From an uncultured bacterium (GTDB taxonomy: Bacteria > Patescibacteriota > Minisyncoccia > Phycocordibacterales > GWA1-40-21), in the NCBI GenBank assembly GCA_963804975.1, contig CAWDSG010000002.1:341015-405014 (forward strand): 64,000 bases of DNA, in the 5' to 3' direction. How positions within the stretch are numbered: the stretch's first letter is position 1; each line of letters opens with the position of its first letter. The notes beneath the pieces are model-generated. The model did no database searches, had not been told where the DNA came from, and worked only from the letters and a program-made list of their open reading frames with translations. Of the stretch, positions 9,111 to 56,219 are shown one piece after another. The translations under genes and the position numbers were made by a program.

Positions 9111-9190
9111 TTATTTACTGCCCCAAGCTCTTGACTTTTTTAATCAAACGTGCTAGCATTATAAGGAATCCGTCTAAGACGGATTTTATT

Positions 9191-9697
9191 ATGATAGAAC
9201 TTATAACAACGTCGTTTTTCGTTTTCTCATCTATCTATGGAGGGCCGACAGGAGCTGTGGCAGATAATCAAGCTGCAACTTCTCCGGAACCTACGATAGC
9301 TAAAGAGGCGACAACGACCACAAACCTGCCTACCGGCCAGGCAGGAATACCGACAAACGAAGGAATCAAAGCTAAAGCGATAGCTTACTTCAAAAACACG
9401 CCGATACTTGCGGATATTGCCGGATGCGAATCAAGATTCAGGCAGTATGACAAGAACGGCAAAGTATTGATTGGCGAGGTCAATAAAGGCGATATCGGAG
9501 TCATGCAGATAAACAAATATTATCATGCAGACAAAGCGGAATCGCTCGGTTATGACCTCAATACTGCGGAAGGCAATATGGCATATGCCAAGTATCTCTA
9601 TGAGAAGGAAGGCACAAAGCCATGGAATTCGTCATCGGCTTGCTGGAAAGGAGGAGATACGCAATCTTCCTCGACAGATCAGGTCGCAATGAGATAA
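9191..9697 (+). CDS. secreted Rpf-like / lysozyme-like transglycosylase-domain protein
   Basis: 'IAGCESRFRQY...GDIGVMQINKYYH...KPWNSSSACW' resembles the resuscitation-promoting-factor transglycosylase-like domain (AxCES ... G.MQ ... W...C). Track ORF begins with TTG at 9131; ATG 9191 gives a signal-peptide-like N-terminus. Confidence 0.55.
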   Translation: MIELITTSFFVFSSIYGGPTGAVADNQAATSPEPTIAKEATTTTNLPTGQAGIPTNEGIKAKAIAYFKNTPILADIAGCESRFRQYDKNGKVLIGEVNKGDIGVMQINKYYHADKAESLGYDLNTAEGNMAYAKYLYEKEGTKPWNSSSACWKGGDTQSSSTDQVAMR

Positions 9698-38151: not shown

Positions 38152-38658
38152 TTATTCCGTTTTAAATGAATCCATCTTCTCCTGAATATTCTTTTGGAAA
38201 TATCCTTTGTATCGCTTCTGAAGAGCCGGCAGTTTCCAGTCGGAACCTTTAATTCTTCCTCGGCACAATTTTGTTCTGCATTTGCATTCCATATCGTAAT
38301 TTCCGCTGTCAGTCATAACGTCATCATATGTAACTTCCTCGTCCTTTTCTATATCTCTCATTGCGTGGGGCCAGTTATCTTTAATGCCTACGTTTGGATC
38401 GCATGAATGATTCATTAGAAAACCAGCCGAAGGATTATTAATATCCAACGGACATTCTTCCTCGTTATCATTTATTTCATAACAAAGCTGTTTCCAAAGA
38501 ATAAAATTCGGCTTCTTTTTGATTTCTTCTTTGGTCAAAATCTGAACATCTTCTGTCCTATCAATCAGTTCGCCTTTCAGTATTTTTTCTTTAGCAAAAA
38601 GACCTTTTCCTTTCTCGGGAGTATTTCTGACTTCAATTTTTGGGTTTATATAGTTCAC
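38152..38658 (-). CDS. SET-domain protein (putative protein lysine methyltransferase)
   Basis: 'GKGLFAKEKILKGELI', 'FLMNHSCDPNV' (NHSC-PN SET signature), 'EEVTYDD', post-SET Cys cluster 'CKCRTKLCRG'; 168 aa. Confidence 0.8.
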   Translation of the reverse strand: MNYINPKIEVRNTPEKGKGLFAKEKILKGELIDRTEDVQILTKEEIKKKPNFILWKQLCYEINDNEEECPLDINNPSAGFLMNHSCDPNVGIKDNWPHAMRDIEKDEEVTYDDVMTDSGNYDMECKCRTKLCRGRIKGSDWKLPALQKRYKGYFQKNIQEKMDSFKTE

Positions 38659-40095: not shown

Positions 40096-41022
40096 ATGAA
40101 AACAAAAAAATTACTCAATTCATTTGTTGTTCTCTCGGTTCTTTTTGGCTTGGTTATGGCAAACACAGCGCTTGCGAACGATAATGGCCAGAATAATTCC
40201 CAGAATAAACCTGAAAAAGTGAATAATAACGGAGGTTTTTTGGGCGGACTTTGGAACGGCTTCTTAAATCGCACAAAAGCCAGCGGTAATAGCAATGCCG
40301 AAAGAGCAAATATTATTTCAGGCATGGTTTCTTCTGTGAGTGGCAACACGATAACAGTTTCTGTTGTGGAAAGGAAACTTCTTAATGTCCCGGCAAATAG
40401 ATATTTCGGTACGAGTACGAGACAGGAATATGGTTCAAGTACAAAACCGATGTTCGGTACGAGTACGAGGCCGGAATTTAATAAAAATATGAAGCCGGAA
40501 ATTTCAACAAGCACTGTTTTGTACTCGGTAGATGCGACAAACGCAAAAATTTACGAAGGCAGAGCGACGACAACGGTTTCAAATATAGCTGTCGGAGATG
40601 TGATTTGGGTTCAAGGCAAAGTGACAGATCAGAATGTGGCAGCCAAAGTGATATTAGTTATGGCAAAAAATCCTATTCCTAAAAAAGGAAATGAAGGGAA
40701 AAATAATCAATTTATCGGAGATGGCCAGCCGATAGTGGCAGGAACGATTTCTTCAATAAGCGCTTCCTCACTGACAATTACAAACAGCGGAAATAATACC
40801 TATACAGTTGACATAACGAGTGCAAAAATATTCGAAGGAAATAAAACCGCTTCATCATCGGATTTGGCAGTCGGCGATGCGGTAGTCGTCCAAGGCACTG
40901 TGAATGGGACTTCAATTACTGCTTCAAGCGTCATTGGCCAGAATGCAAAAGCGGAAAAAGGAGAATCAATGGGATTTTTCGGATCCATCGGCTCATTCTT
41001 CTCCAGATTATTTAAGTTTTAA
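40096..41022 (+). CDS. secreted repeat protein (DUF5666-like beta-rich repeats)
   Basis: Signal peptide 'MKTKKLLNSFVVLSVLFGLVMANTALA'; three repeats of 'G.V.S.SGNTITV ... VGD.V.VQG.V'; internal tandem 'FGTSTR(Q/P)E'; divergent from ECF sigma gene. Confidence 0.55.
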   Translation: MKTKKLLNSFVVLSVLFGLVMANTALANDNGQNNSQNKPEKVNNNGGFLGGLWNGFLNRTKASGNSNAERANIISGMVSSVSGNTITVSVVERKLLNVPANRYFGTSTRQEYGSSTKPMFGTSTRPEFNKNMKPEISTSTVLYSVDATNAKIYEGRATTTVSNIAVGDVIWVQGKVTDQNVAAKVILVMAKNPIPKKGNEGKNNQFIGDGQPIVAGTISSISASSLTITNSGNNTYTVDITSAKIFEGNKTASSSDLAVGDAVVVQGTVNGTSITASSVIGQNAKAEKGESMGFFGSIGSFFSRLFKF

Positions 41023-41037
41023 TCCCGATTGAAAGCT

Positions 41038-41075
41038 GTTGACAAAAACCCCGAGGTTAAACCTCGGGGTTTTTC
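41038..41075. terminator. GC-rich palindromic unit acting as bidirectional terminator (copy P1)
   Basis: gttgacaaaaaCCCCGAGGttaaaCCTCGGGGttttt; convergent genes on both sides. Confidence 0.8.
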
Positions 41076-41121
41076 AAAAGCAAAGATTGAACGGTTATAT
41101 TTATGTATTTTTTCATATTAT

Positions 41122-42288
41122 TTAATTATTTTTTATGGTGAATCCGAAAATAATAAGACCTATTATGACAACGATGCTTCCGGCAATAAGCGCTGTGTTA
41201 TCGCTGTACTGTTGCCAGACAAATCCTCCGATAATGCCGGAGAAAAGCGCTCCGAAACCGACAACGGCGTTCAGATATCCGTATGCTTCGCCTTTATATT
41301 CTTCTCCCACAAGCTTTGATACTTGCGCTCTTTGTGTTCCGTCCGTAAGCGCCGCATTGGTGCCAAGCAATAAAAATCCCACGACAAGCACAGCCAAAGA
41401 ATGGGAAAAAATCAGCACTATATATCCTAATATGAGCATAAGATAGCCGGTAAAAATAACTTTACTGTTCCCTATTTTATCAGCAATCTTTCCGGCAGGC
41501 GTGGAAAAAATCGCATAAGAAATATTATAAATCATATAGAAAAGCGGAATGGAGGCGATTAAAAATCCGAGATCTTTCGTCTTGAAAAGAAGTATGGCGA
41601 CAGGAAGCGAGCCAAGCGACAGGATAAAAATCGCGAGCAGATAAATTTTGAAGGAAAGCGGAAATTTATATCCGGCTTTTGCGATTGTTTTTCTGCTTTC
41701 AGCCAATGTCTTCACTTCGCTGACGAGCGCCAAGCTGAAAACAGCGAGAATTCCGATGACAAATGCCGTCATAAAAACCGTATTGAAAGCATTCGGATTT
41801 TTCAAAAGTATTAAATATGCTACAAGCGGTCCGAAAATCGCGCCGAGAGTATCCATAGCCCGATGATAGCCGAATGATTTGCTCATTTCCTCCGGCGCCG
41901 CCGAAATGGAAATAAGCGCGTCTCGCGGAGCATCACGCAGTCCTTTGCCGATTCTGTCGGTCAGGCGCAGACCGATAACGCCTCCTACGCTACTGACCAA
42001 TAAATAAAATGGTCTTGTCAGAACAGATAAGCTGTAGCCGATGACGGCAAAAATTTTCTTTTTGTGTATTTTGTCCGACAGGCGTCCGGAATATATCTTC
42101 ATAAAATCCGATGCGGCTTCAGCCAACCCTTCCACAAGCCCCAGAGATTCAGCTCCGGATTTGAGAACTGAAATAAAAAATGCCGGCAATACGGAAAGGA
42201 TCATTTCTGATGAGAAATCGTTGAAAAAACTCGTAAGTCCGAGAAAAAAAACATTTTTCTGCAATCCGAAAATTTTATCTTTTTTCAT
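41122..42288 (-). CDS. MFS transporter
   Basis: 388 aa, 12 predicted TM, 'GRLSDKIHKKKIFAVIG' MFS loop 2-3 motif. Confidence 0.8.
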   Translation of the reverse strand: MKKDKIFGLQKNVFFLGLTSFFNDFSSEMILSVLPAFFISVLKSGAESLGLVEGLAEAASDFMKIYSGRLSDKIHKKKIFAVIGYSLSVLTRPFYLLVSSVGGVIGLRLTDRIGKGLRDAPRDALISISAAPEEMSKSFGYHRAMDTLGAIFGPLVAYLILLKNPNAFNTVFMTAFVIGILAVFSLALVSEVKTLAESRKTIAKAGYKFPLSFKIYLLAIFILSLGSLPVAILLFKTKDLGFLIASIPLFYMIYNISYAIFSTPAGKIADKIGNSKVIFTGYLMLILGYIVLIFSHSLAVLVVGFLLLGTNAALTDGTQRAQVSKLVGEEYKGEAYGYLNAVVGFGALFSGIIGGFVWQQYSDNTALIAGSIVVIIGLIIFGFTIKNN

Positions 42289-45912: not shown

Positions 45913-46167
45913 ATGGCAAATAAAAATTCTGCGTTTATGAAGCCTTTGAATGTAAGTGCTGACCTTGCCAAGGTAGTCGGCGCCGGCCCGATGCCGAGAT
46001 CCGAAGTCGTAAAAAAGCTTTGGGTTTATATCAAAGGAAAGAATCTTCAGGATCCGAAGAATAAGAGAAATATAAACGCCGATGCAAATTTGAAAGCGGT
46101 TTTTGGAGGCAAGGCGGTGGTCAATATGTTTGAAATGACCAAGCTCGTCTCAAAGCACTTATCATAA
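45913..46167 (+). CDS. SWIB/MDM2-domain protein
   Basis: 'MPRSEVVKKLWVYIKGKNLQDPKNKRNINADANLKAVFGGKAVVNMFEMTKLVSKHL' matches the SWIB/MDM2 pattern closely; 84 aa. Confidence 0.8.
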   Translation: MANKNSAFMKPLNVSADLAKVVGAGPMPRSEVVKKLWVYIKGKNLQDPKNKRNINADANLKAVFGGKAVVNMFEMTKLVSKHLS

Positions 46168-47276: not shown

Positions 47277-47340
47277 ATTGGCTAGATTATATCATTTTAT
47301 TAAAATTACGGAATCCAAAACTAATTTTTAGACAAAAAGA

Positions 47341-47390
47341 AAACCGACCCACCTCTCTCTCGTTAGAGTTTGAAGGGTCGGCTTTTATTA
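47341..47390 (-). terminator. hairpin with U-tract (minus orientation) about 65 nt upstream of dnaX
   Basis: accgaccc / gggtcggc stem, loop with inner ctct/agag pairing, minus strand continues uuuucuuuuug. Confidence 0.45.
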
Positions 47391-47394
47391 ATGT

Positions 47395-47760
47395 TACACT
47401 AGGTCATAATGGAAACCTCCGGTTCCGTGCGAAATGAAACAGGTATTTACTGCACAGACCAATTAAGGTCTGTTGGCAAACCCGATCAATTGATTATTTA
47501 ATCGATTTTGATCTGTTCGCCGGGCCCCGGATTAGGCGATGGGGATGTCGGTCGCGCTGCTGGTCGTTTTCTTCCCAATAAAAATGGACTTCACGTCGAG
47601 ACTTCCTTCAAAGAACTGGGTCGCACGGCTTCTTCTCCTTTTGATTGGATCCAGCACATCTGTTCCAGATCCTCTCATTGAAATTGGTCCTGCAATAAAA
47701 GGATATCACCATTTACATTTTTTGTCAAATGTTTTGTAATGTTTTTCTGTGGATTACTCA
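47395..47760 (-). ncRNA. candidate structured ncRNA in GC-rich island (class unresolved)
   Basis: GC about 60 percent over 47515-47600 versus about 35-40 percent elsewhere; no convincing ORF; terminated by hairpin at 47341-47390. Confidence 0.25.
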
Positions 47761-47771
47761 GAAATACGGCT

Positions 47772-49440: not shown

Positions 49441-49806
49441 ATGAAAAAGGAAGAAACAAAAAGCATCAAATACGTTTTTTGTGGTTATTCAAAAACGGGT
49501 CGTGAGCTTATTGAAACGGCAATAAAAAAAGTTGCCGAAACGGAAAATTTACTGGTTTTGTTTGACGAAGATCCGTATTACAAAATAGGCAGATCGCCCC
49601 GCGTAATAGTAAAAACAAAAAATGATGATGATTTTGTTTGGGCGATTTATATACTAAGATTGGTGGTGAAAGATAAGTTAAAGGAAAATATTACCGCCAT
49701 CAAGATTTCCAGGGATCCGAAAAAGGAAAGAAGTCAAATTGTTTATATCACACCCAACAGCATTCCGAAAAAGCCCCAGGTTCCTCAAAAAGCGCCTGCA
49801 ATCTAG
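49441..49806 (+). CDS. hypothetical protein, paralog 1 of a small two-gene insert in the def-fmt operon
   Basis: 121 aa; GGAGG RBS; shares pattern with next ORF. Confidence 0.5.
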   Translation: MKKEETKSIKYVFCGYSKTGRELIETAIKKVAETENLLVLFDEDPYYKIGRSPRVIVKTKNDDDFVWAIYILRLVVKDKLKENITAIKISRDPKKERSQIVYITPNSIPKKPQVPQKAPAI

Positions 49807-49887
49807 GCGCTTTTTTAATTGACAAATCTTAAAAATTTTATAGCATAGGAAGTAGAGGTATTTAAATAAATTCCAGGGAGGTTTGAA

Positions 49888-50202
49888 ATGTTTAATATTG
49901 AATTCATTGGGTTTAACAAAAAAGAACGGGAAATTATTGCGAGGTGGATCTCGAGTATTAAAGGAGAAGTAAGAGCACACCATATTAATCCCAATCCGAG
50001 ATATTTTGGAAATCAAATATCTTTTCACCGAGGACTATCAATCGAAAAAAGAGAAGGGGAAGTCAATTCTTTTGTTCGGGTTACTTATCTAAACAAAAAC
50101 GATTTGATCTATGTAAAGTTTCTTCTCAAGGAAGTTAAAAGGAGAGCGGCAATAGCACTCAATCCTGAATATTACAAACTTGATATGGGAACGAACCATT
50201 AA
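49888..50202 (+). CDS. hypothetical protein, paralog 2
   Basis: 104 aa; GGGAGG RBS; distant similarity to previous ORF. Confidence 0.5.
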   Translation: MFNIEFIGFNKKEREIIARWISSIKGEVRAHHINPNPRYFGNQISFHRGLSIEKREGEVNSFVRVTYLNKNDLIYVKFLLKEVKRRAAIALNPEYYKLDMGTNH

Positions 50203-50231
50203 TTTTTTCGGATAAGCAAGTTGAAAAATAA

Positions 50232-50264
50232 GCGCCTGACCTGCGGGTCGGGTGCTTTTCTTTT
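50232..50264 (+). terminator. rho-independent terminator (imperfect stem)
   Basis: gcgcctgacc / ggtcgggtgc then ttttctttt. Confidence 0.5.
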
Positions 50265-50294: not shown

Positions 50295-51227
50295 ATGTTT
50301 AATAAAAATATAAAAACGGCTTTCTTTGGCAATTCGGAATTTTCTCTGATTGTACTTCTCGAGCTTAAAAAACTCGGTTTTTTGCCTGATATTGTAGTTA
50401 CCACTCCCGACAAGCCGGTTGGCAGAAAAATGATTCTTACGCCGACACAGACGAAGGTTTGGGCGCAGGACAATTCAATAGAATATATTGAACCGGTAAA
50501 ACTGAAAGATGAAAGTTTTCTAGAAAAGATGAAAGAATACAATCTTTTTATCGTTGCTTCCTACGGGAAAATAATCCCGAAAGCACTTATTGATATTCCT
50601 AAATATAAAGCGCTTAATATTCATCCTTCGCTTCTGCCGAAATATCGCGGTCCATCGCCCTTGCAGGAGCAGATTTTAAATAATGAGAAAAATGTCGGTG
50701 TTTCAATAATGCTTATAGACGAACAAATGGATCACGGGGCGATTTTGGCACAAAAAAAAGTGGACCTACCTGACCGGCAGGCAGGAATCCCTTCTTGGCC
50801 CGTTGGTTTTAATGAATTGTCTGAAATTCTAGGAAAAGAAGGTGCTAAGTTGTTGATGAAAATTTTACCGGAATGGATAAAAGGCAAGATCAAGCCGAAG
50901 GAACAAAATCACAGCGAAGCGACTTTTACAAAAAAAGTTGAAAAGCAGGACGGACTAATAATCTGTCCCGATGTCTCACATCAGGAAAATGTTGATAAAA
51001 ACCCCGAGGTTAAACCTCGGGGAAACGAAACATATAAAGATTATTTGAAATATTTGGCCTATGAAGATTGGCCGGGAACATATTTTGAAGCTACGCACAA
51101 TGGTAAAAAATTGAAAGTTATCGTTAAAAAAGCTGTTTGGAAAGATGATGAACTTGAAATTCTCCGCGTTGTTCCGGAAGGTAAAAAAGAGATGGATTAT
51201 AAGGACTTTTTGCGAGGCTTAAGATAA
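50295..51227 (+). CDS. fmt: methionyl-tRNA formyltransferase
   Basis: 'HPSLLPKYRGPSPLQ' SLLP motif; 310 aa. Contains an in-frame copy of the CCCCGAGG palindromic unit at 50991-51022. Confidence 0.9.
   Translation: MFNKNIKTAFFGNSEFSLIVLLELKKLGFLPDIVVTTPDKPVGRKMILTPTQTKVWAQDNSIEYIEPVKLKDESFLEKMKEYNLFIVASYGKIIPKALIDIPKYKALNIHPSLLPKYRGPSPLQEQILNNEKNVGVSIMLIDEQMDHGAILAQKKVDLPDRQAGIPSWPVGFNELSEILGKEGAKLLMKILPEWIKGKIKPKEQNHSEATFTKKVEKQDGLIICPDVSHQENVDKNPEVKPRGNETYKDYLKYLAYEDWPGTYFEATHNGKKLKVIVKKAVWKDDELEILRVVPEGKKEMDYKDFLRGLR
50991..51022. repeat. GC-rich palindromic unit, copy P2, embedded in-frame in fmt
   Basis: gttgataaaaaCCCCGAGGttaaaCCTCGGGG identical over 31/32 nt to P1; no T-run. Confidence 0.8.
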
Positions 51228-51242
51228 AAATGTCATTTTTGC

Positions 51243-51271
51243 TTGACAAAAGATAGCTAATATGCTATCAT
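51243..51271 (+). promoter_or_regulatory. sigma70-like promoter with no protein-coding gene downstream
   Basis: TTGACA (51243-51248), 17-nt spacer, TATCAT (51266-51271). Confidence 0.4.
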
Positions 51272-51446: not shown

Positions 51447-51815
51447 TTATTTCCACATTTTTATGAAAGATTTGATTTTTGCTCCACTTCTTTTCAATAA
51501 GCTTGTTTTTTTATCCTTGAAGGATTTCAATTCCTCCGCCATTTCTTCGGTAGCAATATCGATGGAAGAATATAAGTCAGCTTCCTCAGCAGAAGCACGA
51601 AAAGCTTTTCCTCCGATGTGAATCATGAATTCTGTGCGAAATAAATCGCCTGTTTTGTGATGATTGGTGGTCTTCCCTATTTCCGCATAACACATAACCG
51701 TATCTTTAATGATTTCAGGATTTATAAATTTGTCCAAATGGCTGATTCTCTTTTCCAGATAATCTTTGATTGCGGGAGTCAAAACGAAATCGGTTGCTTT
51801 TATATTATGTTTCAT
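51447..51815 (-). CDS. hpf: ribosome hibernation promoting factor / RaiA family
   Basis: 'MKHNIKATDFVLTPAIKDYLEKRISHLDKF' S30AE-family N-terminus; 122 aa. Confidence 0.8.
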   Translation of the reverse strand: MKHNIKATDFVLTPAIKDYLEKRISHLDKFINPEIIKDTVMCYAEIGKTTNHHKTGDLFRTEFMIHIGGKAFRASAEEADLYSSIDIATEEMAEELKSFKDKKTSLLKRSGAKIKSFIKMWK

Positions 51816-52327: not shown

Positions 52328-52401
52328 CAAAAGCTAGTACTTGACAAATAGGATATAATTATTATCATATTTACAGAGGTACAAAATCTTAAAAAGGGGG
52401 T

Positions 52402-53927: not shown

Positions 53928-54057
53928 ATATAATTCGGCAAAAACCGAAGATTATTCTTTTAACACTTGACAAATATATTTAATAGATATATACTTTTTT
54001 CAGTTTTTTGAACTGTTTTCCCGTTGATTTCCCTGCTTATTTTGCTAACATACATCT

Positions 54058-55255: not shown

Positions 55256-55346
55256 TTTTATAATTACTCATTGACAATTAAGCGCATCTATACTATCATT
55301 TAACATAGAATTTGAACGCTACAAAATAATAAGAAAAGAGGGACGA

Positions 55347-55640: not shown

Positions 55641-56219
55641 TTGCTAAAACAATTCCCTACCGATATTGTTTCTGATATCATATCTTTTATGCCTAAGCAC
55701 AAAATTCTTCAAAAGAAATTTTTTGACAGGTCGGTTTTGAAAGTGGCGCTTGAACTTTTGGGAAAATATCTGGTGCGGCGAAATTCTCGCGGCAAAACAG
55801 TGGAATATATGATTACCGAAGTTGAAGCTTATGACAGCGAAAAGGATTTGGCATGCCATGCGTCAAAAGGAAGAACCGAAAGAAACGAAACGATGTACGG
55901 ACCGGCTAGATATTGGTATGTTTATCTTTGCTACGGAATGTATTATATGCTTAATATTGTTACAGGTAAAAAGAATTATCCATCGGCGATATTGATCCGC
56001 GAACTGTCGAAAATGAAAGGTCCGGGAATAATTACTCGGGAACTTAGCATTAAAAAAGAGTTAAACGGAAAAATTGCATCGCCGAAATCCGGCCTTTGGA
56101 TTGAAGACCGCGGAATAAGAATTTCAAAAAAAGATATTGTCCAAACGCAGAGAATCGGCGTAGAGTATGCCGGAAAATGGGCCAAAAAACCATATCGTTT
56201 CGTTTTAAAAAATAGTTGA
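55641..56219 (+). CDS. mpg: DNA-3-methyladenine glycosylase (Mpg/AAG family)
   Basis: 'YMITEVEAYDSEKDLACHASKGRTERNETMYGPARYWYVYLCYGMYYMLNIVT' matches Mpg core; 192 aa. Confidence 0.85.
   Translation: MLKQFPTDIVSDIISFMPKHKILQKKFFDRSVLKVALELLGKYLVRRNSRGKTVEYMITEVEAYDSEKDLACHASKGRTERNETMYGPARYWYVYLCYGMYYMLNIVTGKKNYPSAILIRELSKMKGPGIITRELSIKKELNGKIASPKSGLWIEDRGIRISKKDIVQTQRIGVEYAGKWAKKPYRFVLKNS

Follow-up and report, generated by a model that had tools for sequence, protein, structure and literature searches.

In a 64,000-nt stretch of DNA from an uncultured bacterium of the Patescibacteriota (hereafter the window), a 32-nt GC-rich palindromic unit is present at three places. Two copies, P1 and P3, lie between genes, and the third, P2, lies in frame within fmt, the gene for methionyl-tRNA formyltransferase (Table 1). 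The genome is small, with a GC content of 39%, and the names of Fmt and LysRS relatives point to the Paceibacteria/Patescibacteria type; open reading frames (ORFs) cover ∼88% of the window. A first-pass annotation, made from the window alone, had drawn attention to the three copies and suggested that they represent a small mobile or recombinogenic palindromic element.

The 32-nt unit and its copies between genes

The unit, GTTGAYAAAAACCCCGAGGTTWAACCTCGGGG, was found three times in the window, each time on the plus strand and at the positions first reported, while its expectation in 100 dinucleotide-preserving shuffles was 0. No extra copies were found in the window when up to three mismatches were allowed. 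Each copy consists of an 11-nt flank (GTTGAYAAAAA in this genome) and a perfectly palindromic core of 21 nt, in which two arms of 10 nt surround an A (P1 and P2) or a T (P3). When the three copies were aligned with 40 nt of flanking sequence on each side, identity started abruptly at GTTGA and stopped at GGGG. For P2 and P3, the centroid structure of the stem-loop alone has a predicted folding energy of about -17.5 to -18.5 kcal/mol, and P1 including its A5/T5 extension reaches -28 kcal/mol (z = -6.0). The remaining terminator-like hairpins of the window have stems unrelated to the unit, and an Rfam search of the window returned two tRNAs only and no family at the hairpins. The 32-nt unit is real and non-random. 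In the wider family described below, the stem comprises 8-10 bp, CCCCGAGG(T)/(A)CCTCGGGG, and encloses a loop of 3-5 nt that is specific to each genome.

P1 is flanked by two convergent genes, encoding a DUF5666 protein (40096-41022, plus strand) and an MFS protein (41122-42288, minus strand). P3 lies 3' of mpg, whose stop codon TGA (56217-56219) indeed falls within the GTTGAT flank of this copy, as had been observed before. The T-runs described after both copies are present, with a terminator-like geometry in each case, and the terminator scan called P3 on both strands. P1 and P3 both show the pattern of an intrinsic terminator, namely a GC-rich stem-loop followed by a U-tract 3' of a stop codon. 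Judged from structure only, P1 is shaped like an intrinsic terminator for both directions, and P1 and P3 are considered putative transcription terminators. The ORF at 41029-41319, which had been regarded as a spurious product of P1, starts with MKAVDKNPEVKPRGF and shares part of its length with the MFS gene, which is encoded on the opposite strand.

P3 has a counterpart on contig L001, a relative that shows broad synteny with the window. The same Bestrophin-like gene lies ∼60 nt downstream of P3 and of the copy at L001:11813, and a conserved promoter-like sequence follows each of the two. Their stem is kept, while the loop reads TTTAA in P3 and CTCCG on L001. By sequence comparison, P3 is orthologous to the copy on L001 and represents an old copy whose position is conserved.

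The palindrome could be recognized in a process acting on DNA, such as uptake, the binding of a nucleoid or replication protein or restriction-modification, and be kept wherever it is tolerated, coding sequence included. The strong conservation of stem and flank across genomes in which Fmt is only ∼76% identical is in line with such a role, as is the single orientation of all three window copies. However, CCCCGAGG is never found outside the palindromes, whereas uptake-type words are mostly single and dense, and there are just three copies per 64 kb. Moreover, the loops vary between genomes, the same orientation is kept on both sides of the GC-skew minimum of the window, and the flank resembles a DnaA box weakly. 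A DNA-level site is thus considered very unlikely.

Three narrower readings of the unit were tried and rejected. The half-sites CCCCGAGG and CCTCGGGG occur inside the three palindromes only (∼0.2 per strand would be expected elsewhere in the window), and as they never stand alone, an uptake signal of the DNA uptake sequence or uptake signal sequence (DUS/USS) type was dismissed. The flank contains TTGACA or TTGATA, as a promoter would, but a -10 element at the right spacing is missing. The minus-strand flank, TTATCAACA, has one mismatch to a DnaA box in P2, matches worse in P1 and P3, and is unclustered.

The copy within fmt and the history of its loop

The ORF that contains P2 was confirmed as Fmt by its Formyl_trans_N domain, so that the placement of this copy in an essential gene, in frame and encoding the peptide given in Table 1, proved correct. 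Every family-invariant residue is conserved in the window Fmt. Close orthologues are ∼67-80% identical in the alignment, and the loop between the motifs EKxDG(L/F) and YxxYLK comprises 7-8 residues in 84 of the 91 in which it could be parsed, compared with 25 residues in the window. Longer loops were also observed in P0005 (14 residues) and in P0006, P0007, P0008 and P0019 (11 residues). P0002, the orthologue with the smallest distance to the window Fmt (∼80% identity), has a short ancestral loop, with the DNA sequence gat ctg gct tcc gac agc. Because 84 of the 91 orthologues and the closest one, P0002, are short-looped, the P2 peptide is, on the evidence of the alignment, an insertion relative to the Fmt family and not ancestral coding sequence. 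The comparison with orthologues that had been proposed for the peptide DKNPEVKPRG was therefore decided in favor of an insertion. Using AlphaFold2 with the orthologue alignment, the window Fmt was modeled with a mean predicted local distance difference test score (pLDDT) of 70.5. The pLDDT fell below 50 at residues 159-168 and 224-260, which correspond to both insert regions, and also at two short segments outside the inserts (119-123 and 213-218).

No supporting point was found for the explanation that P2 is an artefact of assembly or binning, or that it resembles the other copies by chance. No chance matches occurred in the shuffles, the frame of fmt is intact with its invariant residues conserved, and the hairpin is found at the same codons in independent assemblies (JGI and ENA). 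The probability of this explanation is regarded as negligible.

On the sense strand P2 carries no stop codon and no T-run, and for this strand the original description of P2 as lacking a T-run holds. It fails for the antisense strand, on which the conserved A5 flank turns the copy into a hairpin followed by TTTTTATCAAC, and the terminator scan called P2 on the minus strand. The convergent gene hpf, encoding a ribosome hibernation factor, is separated from fmt by a spacer of 220 nt with weak terminator candidates only, and transcripts reading through from hpf would encounter P2 in terminator orientation.

Codon alignment indicates that P2 lies in a 42-nt block (Table 1) that is a recent addition relative to the 11-residue loop common to P0005, P0006, P0007, P0008 and P0019. 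The intact P2 unit is located directly 3' of a relic, a decayed copy that is identical to the intact hairpin at 14 of 21 positions, a level reached by a fraction of ∼1.3e-4 of the window 21-mers. P0005 (L001/L002) and P0006 (L003) contain the intact hairpin CCCCGAGGTGGAGCCTCGGGG, which encodes PEVEPRG, at the codons and in the frame of the relic. P0019 reads TCT GAA ACA GAA CCT TGG GAA at these codons, which corresponds to nine changes from the intact hairpin; all nine are transitions, eight of them from GC to AT. P0008 contains a still more decayed version. Neither strand of the fmt hairpins of L001 and L003 carries a T-run. All long-loop Fmt proteins share Y-x-D-Y-L-K, and the short-loop ones Y-x-N-Y-L-K. 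As the intact unit adjoins a relic and intact or decayed copies are present at the same codons in relatives, a repeated or long occupation of the fmt loop is supported by these sequences. In our reading, the site would have been occupied long ago and the window would then have gained a fresh copy beside the relic; a recurrent insertion hot spot at this loop is the alternative.

A second hairpin, which is unrelated to the 32-nt unit, is also located in frame in fmt, and a sister copy lies in frame in another ORF of the window (Table 1). These two 21-nt GC-rich hairpins share the pattern CCTNCCTNNCCGGNNAGGCAGG, and the one in fmt has the 8-5-8 geometry of the first family. The copy in fmt is missing from all aligned Fmt orthologues, and its excision gives back the consensus VEIP. 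Within the long ORFs of the window, GC-rich hairpins were identified only at P2 and at these two positions.

Distribution of the hairpins and surroundings of the window

The syntenic contig L001 contains four copies of the family per 17 kb. An intergenic copy at a distance of 6.7 kb matches its fmt copy completely, even in the loop, and an inverted doublet (13847/13893) lies 3' of an aminotransferase gene, at a place where the genes of the window overlap and leave no spacer. L001 has copies at intergenic sites that are non-orthologous to those of the window. On L123, which stems from the same sample as L001, five copies were found per 2.5 kb, mostly as inverted doublets (1054/1099 and 1897/1923), and one of them has the window's GTTGATAAAAA flank but an L123-specific loop. 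Inverted doublets are seen in L001 and L123, whereas the window copies are three singletons, and T-runs are often missing from the intergenic copies of L001 and L123. No copy, with up to three mismatches allowed, was found in the relatives L116, L117 and L118 (28 kb in total), in which fmt lacks an intact hairpin. Taking window, L001 and L123 together, 10 of the 12 copies are intergenic, a bias that purifying selection on insertions would produce. A metagenome scan with the flank and stem pattern gave 15 matches, 14 of which were chance matches without a hairpin, and a search of viral contigs with the 21-mer gave no match.

To describe the wider distribution, one genome per species was scanned with CCCCGAGGTNNNACCTCGGGG, which yielded at least 112 stretches. 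Among the matches listed, ∼38 are from Patescibacteria; several of these come from the same metagenome-assembled genome (MAG), and several MAGs are multicopy. Patescibacteria MAG133 has at least 12 copies with the loop TCTCA/TGAGA (contigs L024, L030, L031, L034, L044, L056, L079, L086, L097, L108 and L111). At least 2-3 copies each, with a genome-characteristic loop, are present in H43-bin105_1, in one Minisyncoccia MAG and in three Paceibacterota MAGs. The matches listed also include hairpins that lie in frame deep within long, Pfam-confirmed ORFs of other Patescibacteria, encoding LysRS, LigA, TruB, TsaC and PolA (Table 1). When LysRS was compared with its orthologues, the loop was short in 108 of 120, and the hairpin columns were filled in only two others, one of them with an unrelated insert; the LysRS hairpin represents a net gain of 5 residues. 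For TruB, a clean 7-residue insertion could not be demonstrated, as the loop is variable against solved structures. Singletons in high-GC genomes look like chance terminators.

Table 1. Hairpins of the window, their host genes and neighbors, and hairpins within genes of other Patescibacteria. Coordinates refer to the window; for other genomes the contig is given.
Feature	Location	Strand	Description
P1	41038..41069	+	Flank GTTGACAAAAA and 21-nt palindrome; T5 at 41070-41074, giving a 14-bp A5/T5-extended hairpin
P2	50991..51022	+	32-nt unit in frame within fmt; peptide VDKNPEVKPRG
P3	56215..56246	+	3' of mpg, followed by GATTTTTAT; terminator-like on both strands; orthologous to L001:11813
fmt (methionyl-tRNA formyltransferase)	50295..51227	+	Formyl_trans_N, E = 2.5e-29; 310 aa versus ∼285 aa in orthologues; frame intact
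Block holding P2	50988..51029	+	42 nt (14 codons), NVDKNPEVKPRGNE; bounded by GAAA...GAAA; from codon alignment
Relic (decayed) hairpin copy	50967..50987	+	CCCGATGTCTCACATCAGGAA; codon positions where P0005 and P0006 have the intact hairpin
Second hairpin (8-5-8), unrelated to the 32-nt unit	50765..50785	+	CCTACCTGACCGGCAGGCAGG; 21 nt in frame in fmt, LPDRQAG
Sister copy of second hairpin	9325..9345	+	CCTGCCTACCGGCCAGGCAGG, LPTGQAG; in frame in ORF 9131-9697
hpf (ribosome hibernation factor)	51447..51815	-	Convergent with fmt
In-gene hairpin, class I LysRS	L004		Gene assigned by Pfam
In-gene hairpin, LigA	L081		HhH-BRCT linker; gene assigned by Pfam
In-gene hairpin, TruB	L021		Gene assigned by Pfam
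In-gene hairpin, Sua5/TsaC	L061		Gene assigned by Pfam
In-gene hairpin, PolA	L040		5'-3' exonuclease part; gene assigned by Pfam

Some further observations were made on the genomes in which the stem was found. In MAG133, the copies often lie within larger composite repeats that have modules in common, e.g., TCATTCTGAAG and CATTGCGAGTGAAACGAA, and one longer repeat is found on both L034 and L111. The PolA-like ORF of H43-bin105_1 (L040, 2628-4274) carries the family hairpin as the peptide PRGSTSG and, between its exonuclease and polymerase parts, further GC-rich repeat-like peptide segments, e.g., FPEVGLRGENTPPSGHPSIRGELKNYPSAKGWQASKLDGVV. In Chlorobiaceae (L046, L065, L089 and L093), the same stem with a variable loop occurs at one conserved locus (…CCGTTCAGGCAYAT-hairpin-ATTGCTTTATWGGCA…), which probably represents a conserved RNA structure or terminator without relation to the family in Patescibacteria, also known as the Candidate Phyla Radiation (CPR).

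In the neighborhood of fmt, two ORFs (49441-49806 and 49888-50202) are located between def and fmt (window 49441-50202) and gave no Pfam or PHROGs match. Strong hairpins lie near them (49787-49815 and 50230-50257). In L001, L116 and L117, def and fmt are directly adjacent, and in L118 one extra small ORF is found between them; the ORF pair of the window looks like a small inserted cassette. Between ∼46000 and 49000, the cumulative GC skew of the window reaches its minimum and the genes switch from mostly minus to mostly plus orientation. The 495-nt non-coding gap between holB and dus in this part (47277-47771) is found in relatives as well, measuring 886 nt in L001 and 1359 nt in L117. No Rfam match and no DnaA-box cluster were found in the gap, which could be an origin or an undescribed RNA. 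Two genes of the window encode proteins with chromatin-type domains, a SET protein (38152-38658) and a SWIB/MDM2 protein (45913-46167), and the SWIB gene is also present in L001. Near-consensus sigma-70-type promoters were identified in intergenic positions at 51243-51271, 52341-52368, 53967-53995 and 55271-55299; all four have TTGACA, a 16-17 nt spacer and TATCAT or TATACT, and match 11 of 12 positions. From these matches, canonical promoters seem to be used in this CPR genome.

Origin of the hairpins and comparison with known systems

We regard it as probable that P1-P3 are members of a family of dispersed, very short and GC-rich palindromes resembling repetitive extragenic palindromic (REP) sequences, and that P2 is a tolerated in-frame insertion in a loop of Fmt. 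Such a family would persist in some Paceibacteria/Patescibacteria genomes. Between genes, the hairpin with its flanking T-runs would take the form of a rho-independent terminator, bidirectional in P1 and after mpg in P3. P2 would have been inserted in frame where the C-terminal domain of Fmt begins, in a loop that tolerates it, and its survival may be due to its orientation and frame, which bring neither a stop codon nor a U-tract into the sense strand, and to the flexibility of the loop. The conserved A-run would make P2 a putative terminator for antisense or hpf read-through transcription only, which might be a side benefit. The copies would have been made or homogenised by some hairpin-dependent process, since copies within one genome have a common loop sequence. 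The most likely kind is a process that recognizes single-strand hairpins, such as transposition of the REP/RAYT (REP-associated tyrosine transposase) or IS200/IS605 type. The suggestion of the first-pass annotation is supported in that the unit behaves as a dispersed family with an insertion in fmt; its mobility would follow from the distribution, and the search for an enzyme among the window ORFs was negative.

Several results weigh against this interpretation. Pfam identified no transposase, RAYT or Y1_Tnp among the 65 scanned ORFs of the window, which covers about one tenth of the 606-kb source contig, and PHROGs returned no match for the ORFs of unknown function. Neither end of the 32-nt unit, nor of the L001 and L123 copies, carries a GTAG/CGTC tag or its complement. 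No clear target-site duplication was seen at the copies; the first-pass annotation had found none, and when the flanks were checked, only an ambiguous GAAA...GAAA was found, at P2. The net gains in length do not correspond to whole numbers of units: P0006 is longer by 12 nt, LysRS by 15 nt and the window by 42 nt. In a bootstrapped neighbor-joining tree of Fmt with the loops masked, window and P0002 grouped with 40% support and a clade of all long-loop proteins received 0%, so that one and several insertions are not separated. Two hairpin sites, P3 and the one in fmt, are orthologous between window and L001, which fits old, selectively maintained structures too. Finally, among the matches listed, the identical 21-mer CCCCGAGGTTWAACCTCGGGG, or a variant with one base changed in the loop, is multicopy in unrelated Firmicutes MAGs, belonging to Acutalibacteraceae (L013, L015, L016, L019, L022, L023, L029, L054, L062, L064, L074, L080, L082 and L101) and to Clostridia HGM12758 (L009, L060 and L067), which may reflect convergence on a favored terminator stem or horizontal spread. 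In these Firmicutes the 21-mer forms the center of terminator-like hairpins, and the outer stem varies between copies.

The last of these points lead to the explanation that the hairpins are not mobile DNA but selectively maintained structures, which were inherited vertically and whose stem converged with the help of local template-switch or gene conversion. P1 and P3 would then be terminators, and the fmt copy would function as an antisense terminator or as a structure in the mRNA. Besides the orthologous sites, the terminator cores of the Firmicutes and the window without a transposase, it could account for the complete terminator pattern of P2 on the strand used by hpf read-through, where the terminators of the spacer are weak. 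Selection of this kind is, however, difficult to reconcile with the fmt copies of L001 and L003, in which a T-run is absent from both strands, with the decay of the hairpin in P0019 and P0008, which implies that it is not under general selection in fmt, and with its absence from 84 of the 91 orthologues. Between genomes, 4-5 of the 5 loop positions are different, yet the loops of any one genome are uniform, a pattern that point mutation under selection fails to produce. Furthermore, the 11-nt flank is common to different genomes, and the intergenic copies of L001 and L123 are often without a T-run and arranged in inverted doublets. Selective maintenance is therefore judged unlikely, and a dispersed family with a tolerated insertion in fmt is preferred.

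If this holds true, selfish or semi-domesticated hairpins persist in some of the smallest bacterial genomes (the source contig is ∼0.6 Mb), in which repeats are thought to be scarce, and one sequence of 21-32 nt acts as a terminator between genes and provides extra loop residues in essential enzymes. It would also provide some of the lineage-specific insertions of CPR proteins with an origin that is concrete and can be tested. For annotation, the peptides PEV(K/E)PRG, PRGSTSG and LP(D/T)xQAG may be used as markers that flag repeat-derived segments and spurious ORFs. A broader proposal, put forward tentatively and with more doubt than confidence, is that Patescibacteria (CPR) host an undescribed class of ultra-short (21-32 nt), untagged hairpins that are enzyme-copied or homogenised per genome and seed both terminators and, repeatedly, lineage-specific insertions in essential proteins (Fmt twice, LysRS, LigA, TruB, TsaC and PolA). 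They would then be among the sources of the insertions that characterize the proteins of these reduced genomes.

Among known repeats, REPs are most similar to this family. They typically have many, mainly extragenic copies per genome and are mobilized by RAYTs, which are Y1/HUH transposases whose gene is usually flanked by the repeats. REPs are palindromes of 20-40 nt, found mostly 3' of genes or in the spacers of convergent gene pairs, and can be arranged as inverted dimers (PMC3733652). Intragenic copies are known from several species, including one at about the same recB site in two Xanthomonas species, and REP ends can provide stop codons (PMC3733652). Overlapping traits are also described in PMC3116915 and PMC3337134, and the persistence of REPs is reported to be long and mostly vertical (RAREFAN). 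Likewise, the present family consists of short GC-rich palindromes (21 nt, within the REP size range) with a stable stem-loop, has intragenic orthologous copies at the same site and supplies a stop codon from a repeat end. Inverted doublets were seen in L001 and L123, and the window has singletons only. It shares with REPs and their composite forms (REPINs) a species-specific sequence at conserved positions and vertical persistence. However, REPs are defined by a conserved tetranucleotide, GTAG or CGTC, that tags one of their ends (PMC3733652) and is lacking here. The perfect 21-nt core is at the short end of the range, the conserved unit includes a T/A-tract, no RAYT was found among the 65 window ORFs scanned and the copy number is apparently modest (three per 64 kb). 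Because the tag is missing and no RAYT is known for this family, it is not a REP in the strict sense. Patescibacteria are not included among the phyla given for REPs and REPINs in PMC3733652, and a literature search combining CPR with REP or miniature inverted-repeat transposable element (MITE) terms found no description of such repeats.

Rickettsia palindromic elements (RPEs) are in-frame palindromic repeats in unrelated housekeeping genes whose host protein is apparently functional (PMC10969869). They measure about 100-150 bp (∼150 bp in PMC10969869) and add a conserved peptide of 30-50 residues. This family, too, is found in frame in housekeeping genes and adds a peptide. At 21-32 nt (7-14 residues) it differs from RPEs in size and sequence, and it is mostly intergenic and terminator-like. 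A terminator-like look is also shared with SPRITE, a dispersed repeat with a conserved sequence resembling a rho-independent terminator (PMC10969869). The terminal inverted repeats and usual target-site duplications of SPRITE and MITEs were not seen in this family. SPRITE, itself of the MITE type, and MITEs are an order of magnitude larger than the unit described here. The similarity between its copies stops sharply at the 32-nt unit, unlike in MITEs, which have terminal inverted repeats and duplications and span ∼50-500 bp.

P1 and P3 resemble ordinary intrinsic terminators in their GC-rich stem, short loop and T-run at the 3' ends of genes. Independent terminators, in contrast, rarely have 32 identical nt, an in-gene copy in frame, or a flank and stem conserved across genomes. 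From DUS/USS the family is distinguished by the confinement of CCCCGAGG and CCTCGGGG to the three palindromes, rather than over-representation as single words. Intragenic REPs and RPEs are already known in Proteobacteria and other phyla; the advance would therefore lie in host range and type of element rather than in a new principle.

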